5,018 bases of DNA from a virus (IMGVR_UViG_2563366829_000009:1-5018), one strand, 5' to 3'. Shown: positions 1-5,018, numbered from the stretch's first letter. The notes: generated by a model not told the origin, from the sequence alone. Program-made: numbers and translations.

Positions 1-202
1 CGATAAAGCGTGACTACATCAGTGTCATGCCCAAACCAGACGGGTTAACGGCAGCAAAGAACCTTGCAGAGGCGTTCGAGCATTATAACGAATGGCATCC
101 GCATAGTGCACTGGGTTATCGCTCGCCACGGGAATATCTACGGCAGCAAGCCAGTAATGGGTTAAGTGATAACAGGTGTCTGGAAATATAGGGGCAAATC
201 CA
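1..202 (+). mobile_element. IS2-like insertion sequence, right end (partial; element continues beyond window start)
   Basis: Frame-3 translation of 3-191 gives a DDE-transposase C-terminus (...[36 protein letters not shown]) that I recognise as IS2 OrfB. The sequence after the stop (GGGGCAAATCCA, ending at 202) matches my memory of the IS2 right terminus. The minus-strand reading frame of the neighbouring gene changes character exactly at 202/203. The target-site duplication cannot be checked because the left end is outside the window. Confidence 0.78.
3..191 (+). CDS. insD: IS2-family transposase OrfB (InsD-like), C-terminal 62 codons, 5'-partial
   Basis: Open frame from the window edge to TAG at 189-191. 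The translation [62 protein letters not shown] is a typical IS3-family/IS2 transposase C-terminal tail. Confidence 0.75.
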
Positions 203-433
203 GCCGATAAGAATTGATGCTGCTGGTTTGTAAAAGAGAAGGCCGCAAAGAAAGCTGAGCATCGACAGGAGCACCCGGCGACGGATGGGGTACTCTACTG
301 CAGAGGTAACAAAAATTACCACCCCAGCCAAAGCCCCTAAAGCAACCTCCGGAGGGACACCTGCAATAACTGCAGCAAGAGAACCAAAACTAAGCAACTG
401 ATTTAATTGCTCATTTGTTACTTGAGCAGACAT
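203..433 (-). pseudogene. Small hydrophobic membrane protein gene (holin-like or lysogenic-conversion-like), N-terminal 77 codons native, truncated and fused into IS2
   Basis: ATG at 433-431 is preceded by AGGAGA (rc of 438-443) at 5-nt spacing. Residues 1-77 (MSAQVTNEQLNQLLSFGSLAAVIAGVPPEVALGALAGVVIFVTSAVEYPIRRRVLLSMLSFLCGLLFYKPAASILIG) contain two or three hydrophobic helices. Codon 78 onward (WICPYISRH..., down to 116) lies inside the IS2 terminus, so the 105-aa ORF in the track is a fusion artefact. The original C-terminus is lost or displaced. Confidence 0.55.
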
Positions 434-714
434 ACTTTCTCCTGTTTACTATCTATAAGCCAGTCAATTATTGATGACTAAACCCGCATAGCAAACCATA
501 TATGAATCATTATTGTTCCATATCATATATCTCAATAAAAGTACTAATGATTTTACAGAACGAGCCAGCAGAGTGGGGGCAGTTGTACAGGAACCATAGA
601 CTTAATTTTGTATTTAATAATGCTATGGTGTAATAAACCTGAACATGTATTTAAAATACGTACTGATTCATGATAGAATTCAAAGATAACTTTTCACCAA
701 CTCCGTTTTTGATA

Positions 715-741
715 CCCGCAATATTTTGCGGGCTTTTTTTT
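715..741 (+). terminator. Intrinsic terminator-like hairpin (CCCGCAA-TATT-TTGCGGG) followed by a T8 run, oriented for plus-strand transcription; may act bidirectionally
   Basis: 7-bp GC-rich stem 715-721/726-732 with a 4-nt loop, then T734-T741. The T-run overlaps the tailspike stop codon (rc of 740-742 = TAA). On the minus strand the hairpin is followed only by UAUCAAAAAC, so termination of the tailspike transcript here would be weak. Confidence 0.55.
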
Positions 742-3700
742 AACGTTCTTCCAGAGACTGAACCCGCTCTTTTATCTTATCCATTTCTCTGCGCTGCCAT
801 GCTGCCTCGATATAGAATAAGAGATCAGGTCTGACCCCCCATCTAGATCCTGCTGGCGTTATTTCAACGCGCTCAATGATGTCTTCTATTACCATCACTG
901 GATTATCATCATCATCAACAATGATGCTCCCGTCATTATCAGTCAGCGGCATTTCCCTTTGGCCAGTAATGACGTCATCATATACTGCGGGATAATCGTC
1001 ATAGCAAAGAAAGGCATAGCGGCATGTTGTGCTTTCTTCTTCCATGAGTCCGTGAGAAATAAGAACATCACGAAGTTGCTGCGCGATTACACCATGATGT
1101 ATCCTCGCCCCTTCTTCCCCCTTTATAGCGACAGCGTTCAGCCATTTATAAGCGATATACCTGACGTCACCCCAGGCATCCAGCAATGCTTCGTCAGGAG
1201 AGACCGGCTCTGTCTTTAATGTTCCGTCACTGGTAACCACAGGATTGGAGCCAAGATAAACTGTCGAGAACCTGTTTCCCGGACCACCAAGAGCATTTAC
1301 ATTATCAAGATAAGGTTTAACATCTCCGTTCTCAAAAAGATGTTCGAGTGCGTTATATACCGCGCGACGTGGAGTACTGCTTCCGGAACCATGCAACGTT
1401 ATCATTGCACCATCTGCTGAAGACGTTGTTTCACCGCCGCTAACGATTAATCTCTGAGCGGTAACATCATCAGACGGTACTTTCTTCGCAATAATGGCGT
1501 AATTACCCTCAAGTTTGACTTCCGCGCGAACTTGTCCTGATGTACCTGCATGGACAGTCAGTGACTGGACGGCAACATCATCTGTGAAATCAACGGGTAC
1601 AGGAACCGTCCTCACGCCTGACGTCGACATAAAAGTAGGAAGCGTTCTGTTAGGAGTGGCTCCGTAGACAAAATCCCTTGAAACAAATTCTTCCTGTTTA
1701 ATTTTCACCCTGAAACAATACAAATCAGCCGGGTGACCATCGTGAACATAAGGATATTTTCTGTTGTTATCCCCTATGCTCCATGGGTTTAGAAAGTCTT
1801 CCCCACCGAAAATGTAGTACAGCCAGTTGTCTTTGATACAAACTGAACCAACACCAACCGCAGAGTTAACTATTCCGCCCTGATAAATCTGATCAGTAAC
1901 ATTAACCCACTCTACATTATCCAGACTCCACTCATTGACGTTAACTCTGGTCATAAATGTTCTTGGATAATTTCCTGCATAACGGTTATCAGGTTCTCCT
2001 CCTTCCCACTCACCAAATGCGCGCTCACTGCCAAAAATAATCAGCTCATCGCCAACTTTGGCAAAAGGAAGGTTTGAGTGATGAACATTATTTGGGAAGC
2101 GAAGAGAATTCCATGATGTACCTAAATCAGAGCTTCTGTGCAATGAACTACCGGGTTGAGTACTTAATGTCCCCCTGGTCGTCAGATACAGAATGCCATC
2201 ATAATATTTTACACATGGCTCAGATGCATTCGCCTCATATTCTACAGGTATGCGTCTGCGAACAAAGCTACCAGGAGAACCGAAAGCATCAGAGAAATAG
2301 AGTATCCCAAGCTCGCGTGGACCAATATCACCATTATGGTAGCCAACAGCAAAACTGTTATCGCTAATCGTCGCAAAACTGTGAATCTCAGTAACAGGAG
2401 TGCTTCCGTCAACAAAAGAAGGAATAGTTCCAAGACTGGTTTTTCTCCATGGTGACGAGTGAAATGATGTGCCAAAACTCCAGTATCTACCCTCGTTATT
2501 CTGATCCACATCCTGGGTATTTTGCGTCGTAACTGTAAAGGTATTTTTATCAATAACAGTAGTCACCGTCATATTCCCGGTAACACCTGTAACACCAGAG
2601 TTTGAGAAGTTGACAAAATCACCAGCAAATAATCCGTGATCAGTAATGCGAATATAAGCGACTTGCTGATTTGCTGCTTTCGTTATACCACCATAAACGC
2701 GAAGGCTGCGACTCATTGGGCGATCCCACAACTCTGCAACCTGCAGTTTATTTCCTCTCACGGTCCGCGTCTCAATTACAGCAAAAAGGCGATTTCTGAC
2801 AACCCCCATACTCATGCAGTGATAGTTAACTGTGGGATAGTTTTCATGTAAATCTGTAAGCCATTCCGGCGTTGTCCAGGTCTTCCCGTCATCTCCTGAG
2901 CGAACCCATGCAACATGGAGGTTATTTACACCATGGCGGTCTCCAGCCATAAAAGGCGCATAGATGACATTGTCATATACAAACGTTTTATCCTGCGTCC
3001 AGGCGTTGTACCACGGTGTATCTGTAATTTTAAATAACTCTCCCTGGATAAAATCTTCAGAAGCATAAAAAAGAGGCTGGCCCGGTATTCTCTCAAATAA
3101 AAAACGAGCATTTTTAAATCGACTGACATCCGGAAGAGTTGATACTTTAAAAGTAAGCCCTAATCCGTCAATTTTATAACCTGGAGATGAGGCTTCAAGG
3201 CACGCGCTTATTGCAGTGGAATCGTCATTTATACCATCACCAACAGCTCCAAAATCTTTGGGGCTAATAGCATCACGCATTTTATCCTGGAACGTTCGGT
3301 ACACAGCCCCAGAACCATACTGAATAAACCAACCAAAACCACCAACAACTCCGGCGATTGCAGCATCGACATAATTACGCATTGAGCGATTATTTACAGC
3401 GTCCTGCTCAAATGATGGATCTGCAAGGTTAGAAATTTTGTTTTGCTTTGCATCGTAATATTTTGCAAGCAAAGATGGTTTCATCAATGCACGTCTGAAC
3501 CACCCAAAACATTGCTGGATCAGCATCGTCAGGTAGTCAAAGGCATCTTCATGCACTTCGGGGAAAAATTTTCCCTGATTGCGAAGGTCTGTGTCCTGCA
3601 CTACATCAAGCACACGATCTATCGTAATTCGCCATCCAGTAGCAAGCGGAGACGGAAGAACCACAGAACCGCCACTATAAGTGCCCGCCCCAGTTACCGT

Positions 3701-3859
3701 ATAACCGGTATCCAGGACCAATTCTGTTACGTTCCCGTTCAGGTCAGACACCTGAACAACCAGGTCTGATTTTCTGAAAATTCGAAAAGTATACGGAAAC
3801 GATGTCGTAACGCCGTTACCGGTGTATTCGTTGTGGTCAACTTCGGTTGAGACCGTCAT
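740..3859 (-). CDS. Phage tailspike protein, endosialidase-like (endo-N-acetylneuraminidase family candidate) with conserved N-terminal virion-anchor domain and C-terminal intramolecular chaperone domain
   Basis: Intact 1039-codon ORF. ATG at 3859-3857 with GGAGA (rc of 3866-3870) 7 nt upstream. N-terminus MTVSTEVDHNEYTGNGVTTSFPYTFRIF is a conserved tailspike particle-binding module, recalled as epsilon15-like. Two Asp-box (S-x-D-x-G-x-T/S-W) motifs: SGDDGKTW (aa 321-328, nt 2876-2899) and SSDLGTSW (aa 576-583, nt 2111-2134). The blocks VNYHCMSMGV, ITKAANQ and KYYDGILYLTTRGT resemble endosialidases of K1 coliphages as I recall them. C-terminal 162 aa carry the Ser-Lys dyad spacing (S877...K882) and ARIHHGVIAQQ typical of self-cleaving chaperone domains. 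Confidence 0.8.
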   Translation of the reverse strand: MTVSTEVDHNEYTGNGVTTSFPYTFRIFRKSDLVVQVSDLNGNVTELVLDTGYTVTGAGTYSGGSVVLPSPLATGWRITIDRVLDVVQDTDLRNQGKFFPEVHEDAFDYLTMLIQQCFGWFRRALMKPSLLAKYYDAKQNKISNLADPSFEQDAVNNRSMRNYVDAAIAGVVGGFGWFIQYGSGAVYRTFQDKMRDAISPKDFGAVGDGINDDSTAISACLEASSPGYKIDGLGLTFKVSTLPDVSRFKNARFLFERIPGQPLFYASEDFIQGELFKITDTPWYNAWTQDKTFVYDNVIYAPFMAGDRHGVNNLHVAWVRSGDDGKTWTTPEWLTDLHENYPTVNYHCMSMGVVRNRLFAVIETRTVRGNKLQVAELWDRPMSRSLRVYGGITKAANQQVAYIRITDHGLFAGDFVNFSNSGVTGVTGNMTVTTVIDKNTFTVTTQNTQDVDQNNEGRYWSFGTSFHSSPWRKTSLGTIPSFVDGSTPVTEIHSFATISDNSFAVGYHNGDIGPRELGILYFSDAFGSPGSFVRRRIPVEYEANASEPCVKYYDGILYLTTRGTLSTQPGSSLHRSSDLGTSWNSLRFPNNVHHSNLPFAKVGDELIIFGSERAFGEWEGGEPDNRYAGNYPRTFMTRVNVNEWSLDNVEWVNVTDQIYQGGIVNSAVGVGSVCIKDNWLYYIFGGEDFLNPWSIGDNNRKYPYVHDGHPADLYCFRVKIKQEEFVSRDFVYGATPNRTLPTFMSTSGVRTVPVPVDFTDDVAVQSLTVHAGTSGQVRAEVKLEGNYAIIAKKVPSDDVTAQRLIVSGGETTSSADGAMITLHGSGSSTPRRAVYNALEHLFENGDVKPYLDNVNALGGPGNRFSTVYLGSNPVVTSDGTLKTEPVSPDEALLDAWGDVRYIAYKWLNAVAIKGEEGARIHHGVIAQQLRDVLISHGLMEEESTTCRYAFLCYDDYPAVYDDVITGQREMPLTDNDGSIIVDDDDNPVMVIEDIIERVEITPAGSRWGVRPDLLFYIEAAWQRREMDKIKERVQSLEER
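743..1231 (-). other. C-terminal intramolecular chaperone / autoproteolytic domain (peptidase S74-like) of the tailspike; predicted self-cleavage between Ser877 and Asp878
   Basis: Sequence ...GSNPVVTS|DGTLKTEP... with Ser877 (codon 1229-1231) and Lys882 (codon 1214-1216) five residues apart, followed by DAWGDVRYIAYKWLNAVAIKGEEGARIHHGVIAQQLRDV. This matches the established Ser/Lys dyad architecture of the C-terminal chaperone domains of endosialidases and related tail fibres. Confidence 0.65.
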
Positions 3860-4054
3860 GTTAAATCTCCAGATAGTCGCAGCACCCGTTGCGCCGCATA
3901 TCTGGTTATTCTATTACCTGAAAAACCATATATGGATAAAAAGACTATAAATACCAATAGATATTACCTTTCGGGTAATTTGCAAAACGTGCTGGATAGC
4001 AAACAAATTATTTGTTACTGTATAAACATACAGTTATTGCATGGAGAAGATAAG
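3860..4054. promoter_or_regulatory. AT-rich divergent intergenic region between the tailspike gene (minus) and the small ORF (plus); contains a palindrome and candidate promoter elements
   Basis: 195 bp between two divergent start codons, each with a good RBS. Contains palindrome ATTACC-TTTCG-GGTAAT (3963-3979) immediately followed by the self-complementary hexamer TTGCAA (3980-3985), and TATAAA at 4021-4026 preceded by TG at 4019-4020. No hexamer pair with canonical 17-bp spacing was found, so the promoter assignment is tentative. Confidence 0.4.
3963..3979. repeat. Palindrome ATTACC-N5-GGTAAT (candidate operator or small hairpin), copy A
   Basis: Perfect 6-bp arms with a 5-nt spacer. The same half-site recurs at 3914-3919, 4321-4326 (within an inverted GGTAATTGCAAA motif) and as TTTACC-N5-GGTAAA at 4343-4359. 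Confidence 0.45.
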
Positions 4055-4312
4055 ATGCAGCAGTATCACTATCCACTGGAAGACGGATTTACCGAAAGGA
4101 TTCACACGCCGGGAGGCGTCAGGTCACTGGTGGAGGGATCGCACTTGATGAAATTACTCCGGGATCTCGATAAGGATGGATTTAATGTCGATGGCCCACT
4201 TGCCGAACTGACTGCACTGATTAACTACGTCACCAGCTCACAGATGTCTATGCAGGATCTGCAAACACATCTCGACTATTGTGCCGAACAATTACGAAAA
4301 CAAACCAGATAA
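4055..4312 (+). CDS. Hypothetical small acidic protein (85 aa), function unknown
   Basis: ATG at 4055 preceded by GGAG (4043-4046) at 8-nt spacing; stop TAA at 4310-4312. The ORF track start at 3932 adds 41 low-complexity codons from the AT-rich promoter region with no RBS, so the shorter start is preferred. Product MQQYHYPLEDGFTERIHTPGGVRSLVEGSHLMKLLRDLDKDGFNVDGPLAELTALINYVTSSQMSMQDLQTHLDYCAEQLRKQTR has about 14 D/E against 8 K/R and no hydrophobic segment; I do not recognise a family. Confidence 0.5.
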   Translation: MQQYHYPLEDGFTERIHTPGGVRSLVEGSHLMKLLRDLDKDGFNVDGPLAELTALINYVTSSQMSMQDLQTHLDYCAEQLRKQTR

Positions 4313-4330
4313 GGTTTGCAATTACCAAAT

Positions 4331-4374
4331 GGAGTGCTTATATTTACCTTTGCGGTAAATTTACATCGCACTCC
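4331..4374. repeat. Nested inverted repeat: GGAGTGC (4331-4337) / GCACTCC (4368-4374) enclosing palindrome TTTACC-TTTGC-GGTAAA (4343-4359), copy C of the ATTACC/GGTAAT-type motif
   Basis: Read directly from the sequence; lies 19-60 nt downstream of the small-ORF stop codon. Confidence 0.45.
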
Positions 4375-4385
4375 TCTTGTGCCAT

Positions 4386-4437
4386 AGTAATCGGGCACTG
4401 GCAAAATCCAGTGCCGGGATTGGTCTCCCGGATTACT
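4386..4437 (+). other. Compound stem-loop / imperfect long palindrome (candidate structured RNA element or protein-binding site)
   Basis: AGTAATC (4386-4392) pairs with GATTACT (4431-4437). Inside it is a perfect 8-bp hairpin GGCACTGG-CAAAAT-CCAGTGCC (4394-4415) and a second short hairpin GGGA-TTGGTC-TCCC (4416-4429). Confidence 0.35.
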
Positions 4438-4452
4438 ACAGAGGCACATATG

Positions 4453-4471
4453 CCGCATAAGCGGTTTTTTT
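4453..4471 (+). terminator. Weak intrinsic-terminator candidate (CCGC-ATAA-GCGG followed by T7) downstream of the small ORF
   Basis: 4-bp GC stem 4453-4456/4461-4464 followed by T4465-T4471. The stem is short, so confidence is low; it may act together with the upstream compound hairpin. Confidence 0.3.
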
Positions 4472-4566
4472 ATGTGTAAAGCGCACCTATTCTATGGTGG
4501 GCTGTGTGGGGGCACCGAAAGGTGCGCCGGGTTCCTTTGTAGCCGGTAAGACCAACTCTGCACAGT

Positions 4567-4599
4567 TCACCACCATCTGATTGGTCTCAGCGGTGGTGA
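4567..4599. repeat. Inverted repeat TCACCACC-N17-GGTGGTGA upstream of the antirepressor start (candidate operator)
   Basis: 8-bp perfect arms at 4567-4574 and 4592-4599. A second overlapping inverted repeat AGACCAA (4549-4555) / TTGGTCT (4581-4587) is also present. Located 27-60 nt upstream of ATG 4626. Confidence 0.4.
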
Positions 4600-4625
4600 T
4601 TAACCTAACTACAAAGGTGATCGCT

Positions 4626-4793
4626 ATGAATACCAAACCTTCCATCTTTTCCTTTGAGTCATCCTGCCAGATCCGTATGTTCATGATTGACGGAGAACCT
4701 TGGTTTGTCACCAAAGATGTGTGCAATGCTTTGAATATTGATGTTACACAAGCGAGAAAACTTGATAAAAAAGGCTGGAACAAAAAGGGGCTG
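4626..4793 (+). pseudogene. Bro-N-domain phage antirepressor-like gene, N-terminal 56 codons only; truncated by IS3-family insertion
   Basis: ATG 4626 preceded by AAGGTG (4614-4619) at 6-nt spacing. Translation MNTKPSIFSFESSCQIRMFMIDGEPWFVTKDVCNALNIDVTQARKLDKK... fits the Bro-N / antirepressor N-terminal pattern (F-x-F...IR...DGEPWF-x-x-KDV...L). The frame runs straight into the IS terminus TGAACCGCCCC at 4794, whose first three bases supply the stop codon. Confidence 0.6.
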
Positions 4794-5018
4794 TGAACCG
4801 CCCCGGGTTTCCTGGAGAGTGTTTTATCTGTGAACTCAGGCTGCCAGATCATCGTTTCCGATGGAAGCATAATAAGCTTTTTCTGCTTCTGCCGGAGGAG
4901 TATGGCCCAGCCTTTCCAGCAATCGTCGATTGTTATACCAGTCCACCCACGTGAGTGTGGCCAGTTCCACTTCTGCACGGTTTTTCCAGCTCTTACGGTG
5001 TATTACCTCCGCTTTGTA
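4794..5018 (-). mobile_element. IS3-family insertion sequence (IS629/IS3411-like), terminal inverted repeat and 3' end of transposase; element continues beyond window end
   Basis: Terminus TGAACCGCCCCGGGTTTCCTGGAGAG at 4794 is a characteristic IS3-family end (TG...CA). The minus-strand frame 5018-4836 encodes a DDE-transposase C-terminus. The target-site duplication cannot be checked within the window. Confidence 0.75.
4836..5018 (-). CDS. IS3-family transposase OrfB, C-terminal 60 codons, 5'-partial
   Basis: Reverse-complement translation YKAEVIHRKSWKNRAEVELATLTWVDWYNNRRLLERLGHTPPAEAEKAYYASIGNDDLAA* is in frame with the window edge; stop TGA is rc of 4836-4838. It is absent from the ORF track only because it has no in-window start codon. 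Confidence 0.8.
   Translation of the reverse strand, partial: YKAEVIHRKSWKNRAEVELATLTWVDWYNNRRLLERLGHTPPAEAEKAYYASIGNDDLAA

Follow-up and report, generated by a model that had tools for sequence, protein, structure and literature searches.

We analysed a 5,018-nucleotide (nt) stretch of viral DNA (IMGVR_UViG_2563366829_000009:1-5018), here called the window, whose minus strand carries one long tailspike gene at positions 740-3859. The results suggested that this gene encodes the mosaic tailspike of a K1-specific temperate phage of the Uetakevirus type, integrated at the 3' end of guaA, that the prophage has since been disabled, and that the gene is now an intact but currently useless remnant, kept whole by the recency of the damage and not by selection. 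We put the probability of this reading at about 0.88.

The tailspike gene and its domains

The open reading frame (ORF) ran uninterrupted through 1039 codons to one terminal stop, and a Shine-Dalgarno sequence (GGAG) was located 7 nt 5' of its ATG, so the intact 1039-residue frame described in the initial annotation was borne out. The features of the gene are listed below, all on the minus strand, with window positions first and amino acid (aa) positions of the product after them.

740-3859, minus strand: complete tailspike ORF, 1039 aa plus stop; ATG start, stop codon at 740-742
3272-3859, minus strand: putative virion-attachment module (anchor and neck) of epsilon15/Uetakevirus type, aa 1-196
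3162-3263, minus strand: joint of ~100 nt, about aa 199-232, with the DFGAVGDGINDD motif; the gap between blastn matches
769-3161, minus strand: 2393-nt cassette, 99.29% identical (17 mismatches) to CUS-3 siaK1 by blastn
3047-3247, minus strand: End_N_terminal extension, aa 205-271 (Pfam PF12218, E = 5.8e-32)
1697-3046, minus strand: predicted six-bladed beta-propeller catalytic domain (GH58), aa 272-721 (Pfam PF12217 End_beta_propel, E = 1.7e-232)
2876-2899, minus strand: Asp box 1, SGDDGKTW, aa 321-328
2465-2713, minus strand: End_beta_barrel inserted in the propeller, aa 383-465 (Pfam PF12195, E = 3.2e-46)
2219-2221, minus strand: E547, equivalent of the catalytic Glu581 of endoNF by alignment; context SEPC
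2174-2176, minus strand: R562, equivalent of endoNF Arg596 by alignment; context TRGT
2111-2134, minus strand: Asp box 2, SSDLGTSW, aa 576-583
2021-2023, minus strand: R613, equivalent of endoNF Arg647 by alignment; context SERA
1232-1696, minus strand: stalk domain End_tail_spike, aa 722-876 (Pfam PF12219, E = 8.4e-78)
743-1231, minus strand: predicted intramolecular chaperone and autoproteolysis domain, aa 877-1039 (Pfam PF13884, PDB 3gw6)
1214-1216, minus strand: codon of K882, partner residue of the predicted cleavage before S877

All four endosialidase-specific Pfam domains were present in the canonical order and were followed by Peptidase_S74, and the match to PF12217 spanned the full profile (1-367). 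Residues 205-876 aligned end to end with endoNF, the gp17 endosialidase of phage K1F (PDB 1v0e, 3gvl; E = 0), with 65.7% identity over this catalytic and stalk region (665 aligned residues). The catalytic triad of endoNF has been named as Glu581/Arg596/Arg647 (PMC2955717), and the alignment showed all three conserved as E547, R562 and R613. The whole tailspike protein was also scanned for Asp boxes with the pattern [ST]xDxGxx[WFY], and SGDDGKTW and SSDLGTSW were its two only matches, exactly the pair that had been pointed out before. The endosialidase-like blocks noticed alongside them were likewise confirmed, with matches far beyond chance. By these homologies the central region is a GH58 endosialidase with a sialidase beta-propeller, and alpha-2,8-polysialic acid is its predicted substrate. 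Neither of the sequence outcomes named beforehand as refuting this, a beta-helix fold or the loss of catalytic residues, was observed. Two differences from endoNF were found, a 7-aa insertion, FVDGSTP (aa 482-488), and the replacement of N912 by D878. The polysialic-acid-binding residues of the endoNF stalk, which we take to be R837, S848 and Q853, would fall on R803, S814 and M819; this correspondence was not used as evidence. A search of NCBIfam with the tailspike protein matched no family.

In the C-terminal part, Peptidase_S74 (PF13884) matched aa 877-937 (E = 1.7e-10), the structure of the endoNF chaperone domain (3gw6) aligned over aa 757-1038 (E = 3.2e-93), and the identity of the chaperone domain to K1F gp17 was 53.2%. 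By alignment, S911, K916 and G956 of K1F correspond to S877, K882 and G923 of the window tailspike, and the K1F record places the boundary between the mature protein and the C-terminal domain at 910/911. Self-cleavage through a Ser-Lys dyad has been described in a paper on MYRF (PMC3742443). The proposal of a self-cleaving chaperone domain was supported, with the dyad S877/K882 in place, and autoproteolytic release of the C-terminal domain is predicted by homology.

The N-terminal region belonged to a different family of spikes. Residues 1-165 were 70.9% identical to gp20 of epsilon15 (E = 9e-69), in agreement with the particle-binding module of roughly 160 aa that the initial annotation had likened to epsilon15. 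Over the same residues, identity was 67-70% to the tailspikes of phiV10, SPN1S and further Uetakeviruses, and phrog_1640 and phrog_5662 matched the N-terminal module as well. With phiv142-3, a Uetakevirus whose receptor-binding part is unrelated, identity was 97.5% over aa 1-199, and the likeness stopped at about aa 196. Residues 1-209 aligned with residues 1-214 of the solved chain of Dpo31 (E = 3e-35), the tailspike of the marine podovirus Carin-1 (PDB 28lx/28mg; Acta Cryst D 2026), in which a D1 beta-sandwich contacts the virion base, as seen by cryo-electron microscopy, and is followed by a coiled-coil D2 neck (PMC13317679). Dpo31 also sheds its C-terminal domain; it differs in its catalytic domain and its host, and the window anchor was compared with it by alignment. 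From these likenesses, the window spike would attach to the virion through its anchor and neck. In Pfam the anchor was unrecognised at threshold, its sole match being a sub-threshold one to Phage_T7_tail (16.1 bits against a cutoff of 25.2); as this match falls below the cutoff, we did not endorse the label "T7-like" given to the same N-terminus in the paper on phage vB_EcoP_ZX5 (PMC9782041).

An endosialidase cassette shared with CUS-3

The catalytic, stalk and chaperone domains are shared with SiaK1 of CUS-3 (CP000711), a P22-like Lederbergvirus whose record cites directly assayed endosialidase activity of its own enzyme. The shared cassette covers ORF nt 699-3091 (aa 233-1030), corresponds to positions 2623-5015 of the CUS-3 locus, and has unrelated flanks; blastn found no DNA match to CUS-3 5' of ORF nt 699. 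Only 12 aa differed from CUS-3 over aa 233-1030, none of them at catalytic or cleavage residues. Because these 2393 nt are 99.29% identical to the CUS-3 endosialidase gene, the cassette core appears to have been exchanged very recently with CUS-3-type prophages. The crossovers with CUS-3 lie inside End_N_terminal (about aa 233) and inside the last chaperone helix (about aa 1025-1030), not at domain borders.

Outside the cassette the two spikes part. CUS-3 has a P22-type head-binding N-terminus with 0-26% identity to the window spike over aa 1-200, and the last 10-14 aa of the spike also differ. CUS-3 carries neuO with AAGACTC repeats 3' of its spike gene, whereas the window has a holin gene there; a scan of the window for AAGACTC heptad tracts, with up to 2 mismatches allowed, found none, nor any tandem repeat of that kind. 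Because its anchor is different and neuO is absent, the window spike is judged not to be of CUS-3 type, and its sequence places it with the Uetakevirus type. The other named spikes can be set against it in the same way. Those of epsilon15 (gp20), phiV10, phiv142-3 and SPN1S share its anchor and have a divergent gp19-like gene upstream, but their receptor-binding parts are O-antigen-specific modules with 10-30% identity beyond aa 200. EndoNF shares the catalytic residues and the cleavage residues S911/K916, but the N-terminus of the K1F protein is T7 gp17-like and 20% identical to the window spike. In the respects that can be tested on sequence, the residue equivalent to N912 (see below) apart, the window spike looks like a GH58 endosialidase with an S74 chaperone domain.

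The anchor and the upstream genes (window 3264-4600) followed the phiv142-3 lineage, with 95.2% DNA identity. The joint at 3162-3263 was unlike both this lineage and CUS-3 at the DNA level, and among phage records it was found only in ZX5 and in Phi05 fragments; its DFGAVGDGINDD stretch, which holds a GDG motif, taken alone also matched tail fibres of the pectin-lyase fold. The junction between anchor and endosialidase cassette lies at a conserved motif, DFGxxGDGxxDD. As a curiosity, the joint may be a stub of about 100 nt left from an older endosialidase allele; together with the placing of the crossovers inside domains, this is a weaker claim than the domestication weighed below, but a better supported one.

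The same exchange of parts was seen in other E. coli genomes, in which the same anchor (ORF nt 1 to about 582-627) was joined to GH28-related, SGNH/GDSL hydrolase or beta-helix modules. Many further genomes carried the CUS-3-type spike only. Three sampled genomes with the full-length gene showed a second matching place, which might be a co-resident CUS-3-type prophage. Cassette swapping in K1 phages has been described since Stummeyer et al. 2006, as reviewed in PMC5380687. Of the chimeric tailspike put forward earlier, then, the three-part architecture stands, but the idea of an unusual chimera does not; it is the regular spike of a K1-specific, epsilon15-like temperate branch.

Closest relatives and distribution

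The tailspike was 99.5% identical to ORF7 (QTH80017.1) of ZX5, with 5 aa and 10 nt differences and the same length of 1039 aa, and window positions 203-4629 were 98.5% identical to the ZX5 genome (MW722083). ZX5 is a viable temperate podovirus of Uetakevirus, isolated on an O87:H52:K1 host and able to form plaques on a K1 strain; it integrates at the 3' end of guaA and is spontaneously induced at 10^7 plaque-forming units (PFU)/mL (Pathogens 2022, PMC9782041). The same paper already divides ORF7 into three parts, with a tail-fibre domain at the N-terminus, an endosialidase in the middle and a chaperone at the C-terminus. ZX5 resembles the window in its gp19-like gene upstream, in the membrane protein/holin, endolysin and DUF2514 genes downstream, in the guaA site and in the K1 host; the window copy, by contrast, belongs to a prophage whose holin and antirepressor genes, on either side of the tailspike gene, carry insertion sequence (IS) elements.

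In E. coli MS 196-1, window positions 1-4794 matched at 99.96% and the tailspike ORF was identical (WP_000218905.1, annotated there as an endosialidase beta-propeller domain protein). Counted over the ORF, the differences were 0 nt to MS 196-1, 2 nt to AF14 and 10 nt to ZX5. The full-length gene was found in 72 of 5,426 complete E. coli genomes, always on the chromosome and with 99-100% identity among the copies listed; one of these carriers is an O2:K1:H7 avian pathogenic E. coli (APEC) strain. It adjoined yfgI in all three genomes inspected (MS 196-1, AF14 and APEC E18055, O2:K1:H7). The context in the window was epsilon15-like, with a divergent gp19-like gene and a lysis cassette that ends the prophage on the guaA side, beside yfgI. 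The tailspike is real but ordinary, having been recorded in RefSeq and published as a phage protein before; the novelty implied by the initial annotation was not supported, given the 99.5% identical protein of ZX5 and the 72 genomes.

In some prophage carriers an extra hypothetical gene of 729 nt was observed; in APEC E18055 (7133-7861) it lies on the opposite strand between the gp19-like and BRO-N genes. Because of this gene, the window matches such genomes in two pieces.

State of the prophage and fate of the tailspike gene

Both ends of the window are occupied by IS elements, each of which truncates a phage gene.

1-202, plus strand: right end of an IS2-type (IS3-family) element in the holin gene; 5-bp target duplication GCCGA at 203-207
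203-433, minus strand: 5' fragment of a class-8 phage holin gene, 77 codons, truncated by the IS (Pfam Phage_holin_8; phrog_198 holin)
4626-4794, plus strand: BRO-N antirepressor gene, first 56 codons, truncated by the second IS
4795-5018, minus strand: end of a second IS3-family element, with the transposase C-terminus

The left-hand element is presumably IS2, to judge from its terminal repeats and the C-terminus of InsD. The holin fragment is annotated as partial in MS 196-1 too. The insertions interrupt the antirepressor gene and, of two holin-type genes in the window, one; the tailspike gene was the one long gene left intact between them, and both insertions were seen as first described.

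The prophage of MS 196-1 showed further loss. When its locus (25341-33090) was compared with those of AF14 (25140-37496) and ZX5 (28308-39565), a block of about 11 kb, which ZX5 (28.3-39.6 kb) and AF14 both have and which carries tail and ejection genes, was found to be missing. The missing block holds a tail protein, part of the connector gene, an SLT-domain protein, a T7 gp14-like core protein and other ejection proteins, and an IS3-family element lies at the edge of the deletion. The AF14 prophage, on the other hand, was free of IS elements, and its structural and lysis genes were intact in the stretch read. The phrase "otherwise decaying prophage" used earlier is apt, given the insertions in the holin and antirepressor genes and the loss of tail genes in MS 196-1.

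MS 196-1 has a K1 capsule locus (834-851 kb, next to the pheV island) with neuD, neuB, neuA, neuC, neuE and neuS flanked by kps export genes. An IS1 has inserted into this locus between kpsT and neuD, and the annotation marks frameshifts in neuA and neuE. The polysialic-acid substrate may no longer be made in MS 196-1; the capsule locus could be decaying in an IS-rich lineage, or the frameshifts could be assembly errors.

We infer the following course from homology to endoNF and CUS-3, which covers trimerisation, cleavage, attachment and specificity alike. Three chains would trimerise under the guidance of the C-terminal chaperone domain, which would then cut itself off before S877 by means of the S877/K882 dyad. 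The mature trimer would be held on the tail by aa 1 to about 196, the N-terminal anchor and neck, and the active sites of the propellers (E547, R562, R613) would cleave alpha-2,8-polysialic acid, so that the phage could tunnel through the K1 capsule. The IS elements in the holin and antirepressor genes would have disabled the prophage and left the spike gene behind unused. In MS 196-1 the tailspike is probably such an unused remnant; with the tail genes lost, any spike produced by this prophage would lack a tail to attach to.

Several points weigh against this reading. The tail-gene deletion was seen only in MS 196-1, the closest relative, which itself lacks the right-hand IS junction of the window. 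The tailspike gene may be expressed from its own promoter in the lysogen. The enzymatic activity and the proteolysis ascribed to this exact protein are carried over from its homologues. In addition, N912 of endoNF, reported to be essential, is Asp (D878) in the window tailspike; D878 is not among the residues that differ from the CUS-3 endosialidase, and the functional MYRF domain has an Asp at the N912-equivalent position, where it is needed for processing (PMC3742443).

The strongest alternative is that the prophage still functions and that the tailspike is in use on infective K1-specific virions released from this strain. No damage was seen in the ORF, in its Shine-Dalgarno sequence or in the sequence upstream of it, a near-identical IS-free prophage exists in AF14, and ZX5 is spontaneously induced. 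On the other side, the window itself shows the insertions in the antirepressor gene and in one holin-type gene of two, and some 11 kb with tail and ejection genes are missing from the closest genome, which matches the window at 99.96% over 4794 nt. We hold a working prophage to be unlikely.

We regard it as more improbable still that the endosialidase is a domesticated depolymerase, kept and expressed in a dead, tail-less and lysis-impaired prophage for the benefit of the K1 host, whether by capsule remodelling, by trimming or shedding of polysialic acid, or by interference with other K1 phages. Such a role would fit the survival of a sole long intact gene between two IS insertions. It would also fit the ratio of nonsynonymous to synonymous polymorphism (pN/pS) of the tailspike gene, which was 0.14-0.29 against more distant copies, though the purifying selection on a working phage gene is expected to give the same; we ascribe the low values to the gene's past as such a gene. 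Against domestication, the gene differs by only 0-2 nt from related prophage copies, that of the IS-free AF14 included, which leaves no time for observable neutral decay. Moreover, the enzyme has no signal peptide and no export route besides phage lysis, and its substrate may be absent in MS 196-1, with IS1 in the K1 locus and neuA and neuE annotated as frameshifted.

The same counts bear on the preferred reading of an idle remnant. With 0 nt differing from MS 196-1 and 2 nt from the AF14 prophage, which is free of IS elements, the gene has gathered essentially no mutations since the damage; its intactness therefore says nothing for selection, and the gene has not decayed because the IS damage is too recent. 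Selection for retention was rejected as unsupported on these differences between copies, and with it the suggestion in the initial annotation that an intact depolymerase hints at selection or recent acquisition; "recent" fits the damage, not an acquisition. Lastly, the sequence effectively refutes a central region that would be a right-handed beta-helix depolymerase, or else an endosialidase-like lectin without activity. A likeness to beta-helix proteins is confined to the short GDGxxDD motif of the joint, which we did not count as support; the full-length match is to the endosialidase beta-propeller, with catalytic Glu/Arg/Arg present, and none of the 12 aa differences from the active CUS-3 enzyme (aa 233-1030) is catalytic.

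Flanking sequences

One further feature lies directly beyond the tailspike stop codon.

715-732, plus strand: GC-rich hairpin with a T-run on the plus strand

This strong hairpin has the orientation of a terminator for transcription that runs towards the tailspike gene on the opposite strand. It lies in an AT-rich spacer of 306 bp (window 434-739, GC about 0.35) that separates the tailspike stop from the holin gene, and no plus-strand gene is annotated in the spacer beside it. Epsilon15 differs here, with a converging gene of the O-antigen-ligase family and then a serotype-conversion gene at the position of the spacer. Because of these converging genes in epsilon15, the hairpin may be a relic of a lost moron; it may otherwise be part of a small unannotated transcript.

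Upstream of the tailspike, a gene of 85 aa (4055-4312, plus strand) runs divergently from it. Its product belongs to phrog_450 (unknown function) and matched an anti-repressor family weakly, over the C-terminal part of that family. The gene lies within a stretch 74% identical in DNA to the gp19 region of epsilon15, whose record annotates repressor and integration host factor (IHF) binding sites in the intergenic region beside gp19. A longer ORF of 126 aa from 3932 is probably not used, because annotations start at 4055. Further on, 5' of the truncated antirepressor gene, Rfam identified the Hfq-binding RNA isrK at 4395-4471 (plus strand, 74.7 bits) and, in tandem with it, a C4 antisense RNA at 4490-4577 (plus strand, 78.6 bits); a terminator-like hairpin at 4452-4465 fits the 3' end of isrK. 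The arrangement at 4395-4577 resembles the c4-ant immunity (immI) control regions of P1/P7 type, here in an epsilon15-like prophage.

The right-hand IS junction (4794/4795) was searched for in the 5,426 complete E. coli genomes and was absent from all of them; the source genome, a close relative of MS 196-1, is not one of that set. The right-hand IS end was 99.6% identical (1 mismatch in 226) to the IS3-family copy that edges the MS 196-1 tail-gene deletion (31780-33090 of the prophage locus), and that copy is inverted relative to the spike gene when compared with the IS end in the window. The junction could be a fresh insertion, or the 8 kb that separate the two sites could have been inverted or deleted through the IS elements. 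Two other observations were made in the MS 196-1 prophage, an inverted segment of accessory genes and about 2.5 kb (29251-31787) unmatched in ZX5 and AF14, including a truncated hypothetical gene.

Significance

As a discovery this tailspike carries little weight. Its epsilon15-type version has already been isolated, sequenced and described, and, since the work on K1F, K1E and CUS-3, K1 endosialidase spikes on modular anchors have served as the textbook illustration of how host range evolves by the swapping of cassettes. Its practical use would be as a further source of endosialidase for K1 detection or decapsulation. For the biology of these phages it serves as a worked example of such swapping, in that different E. 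coli genomes carry one anchor with endosialidase, GH28-related, SGNH/GDSL hydrolase or beta-helix modules, and in that two unrelated prophage genera share a 2.4-kb core at 99.3% identity.

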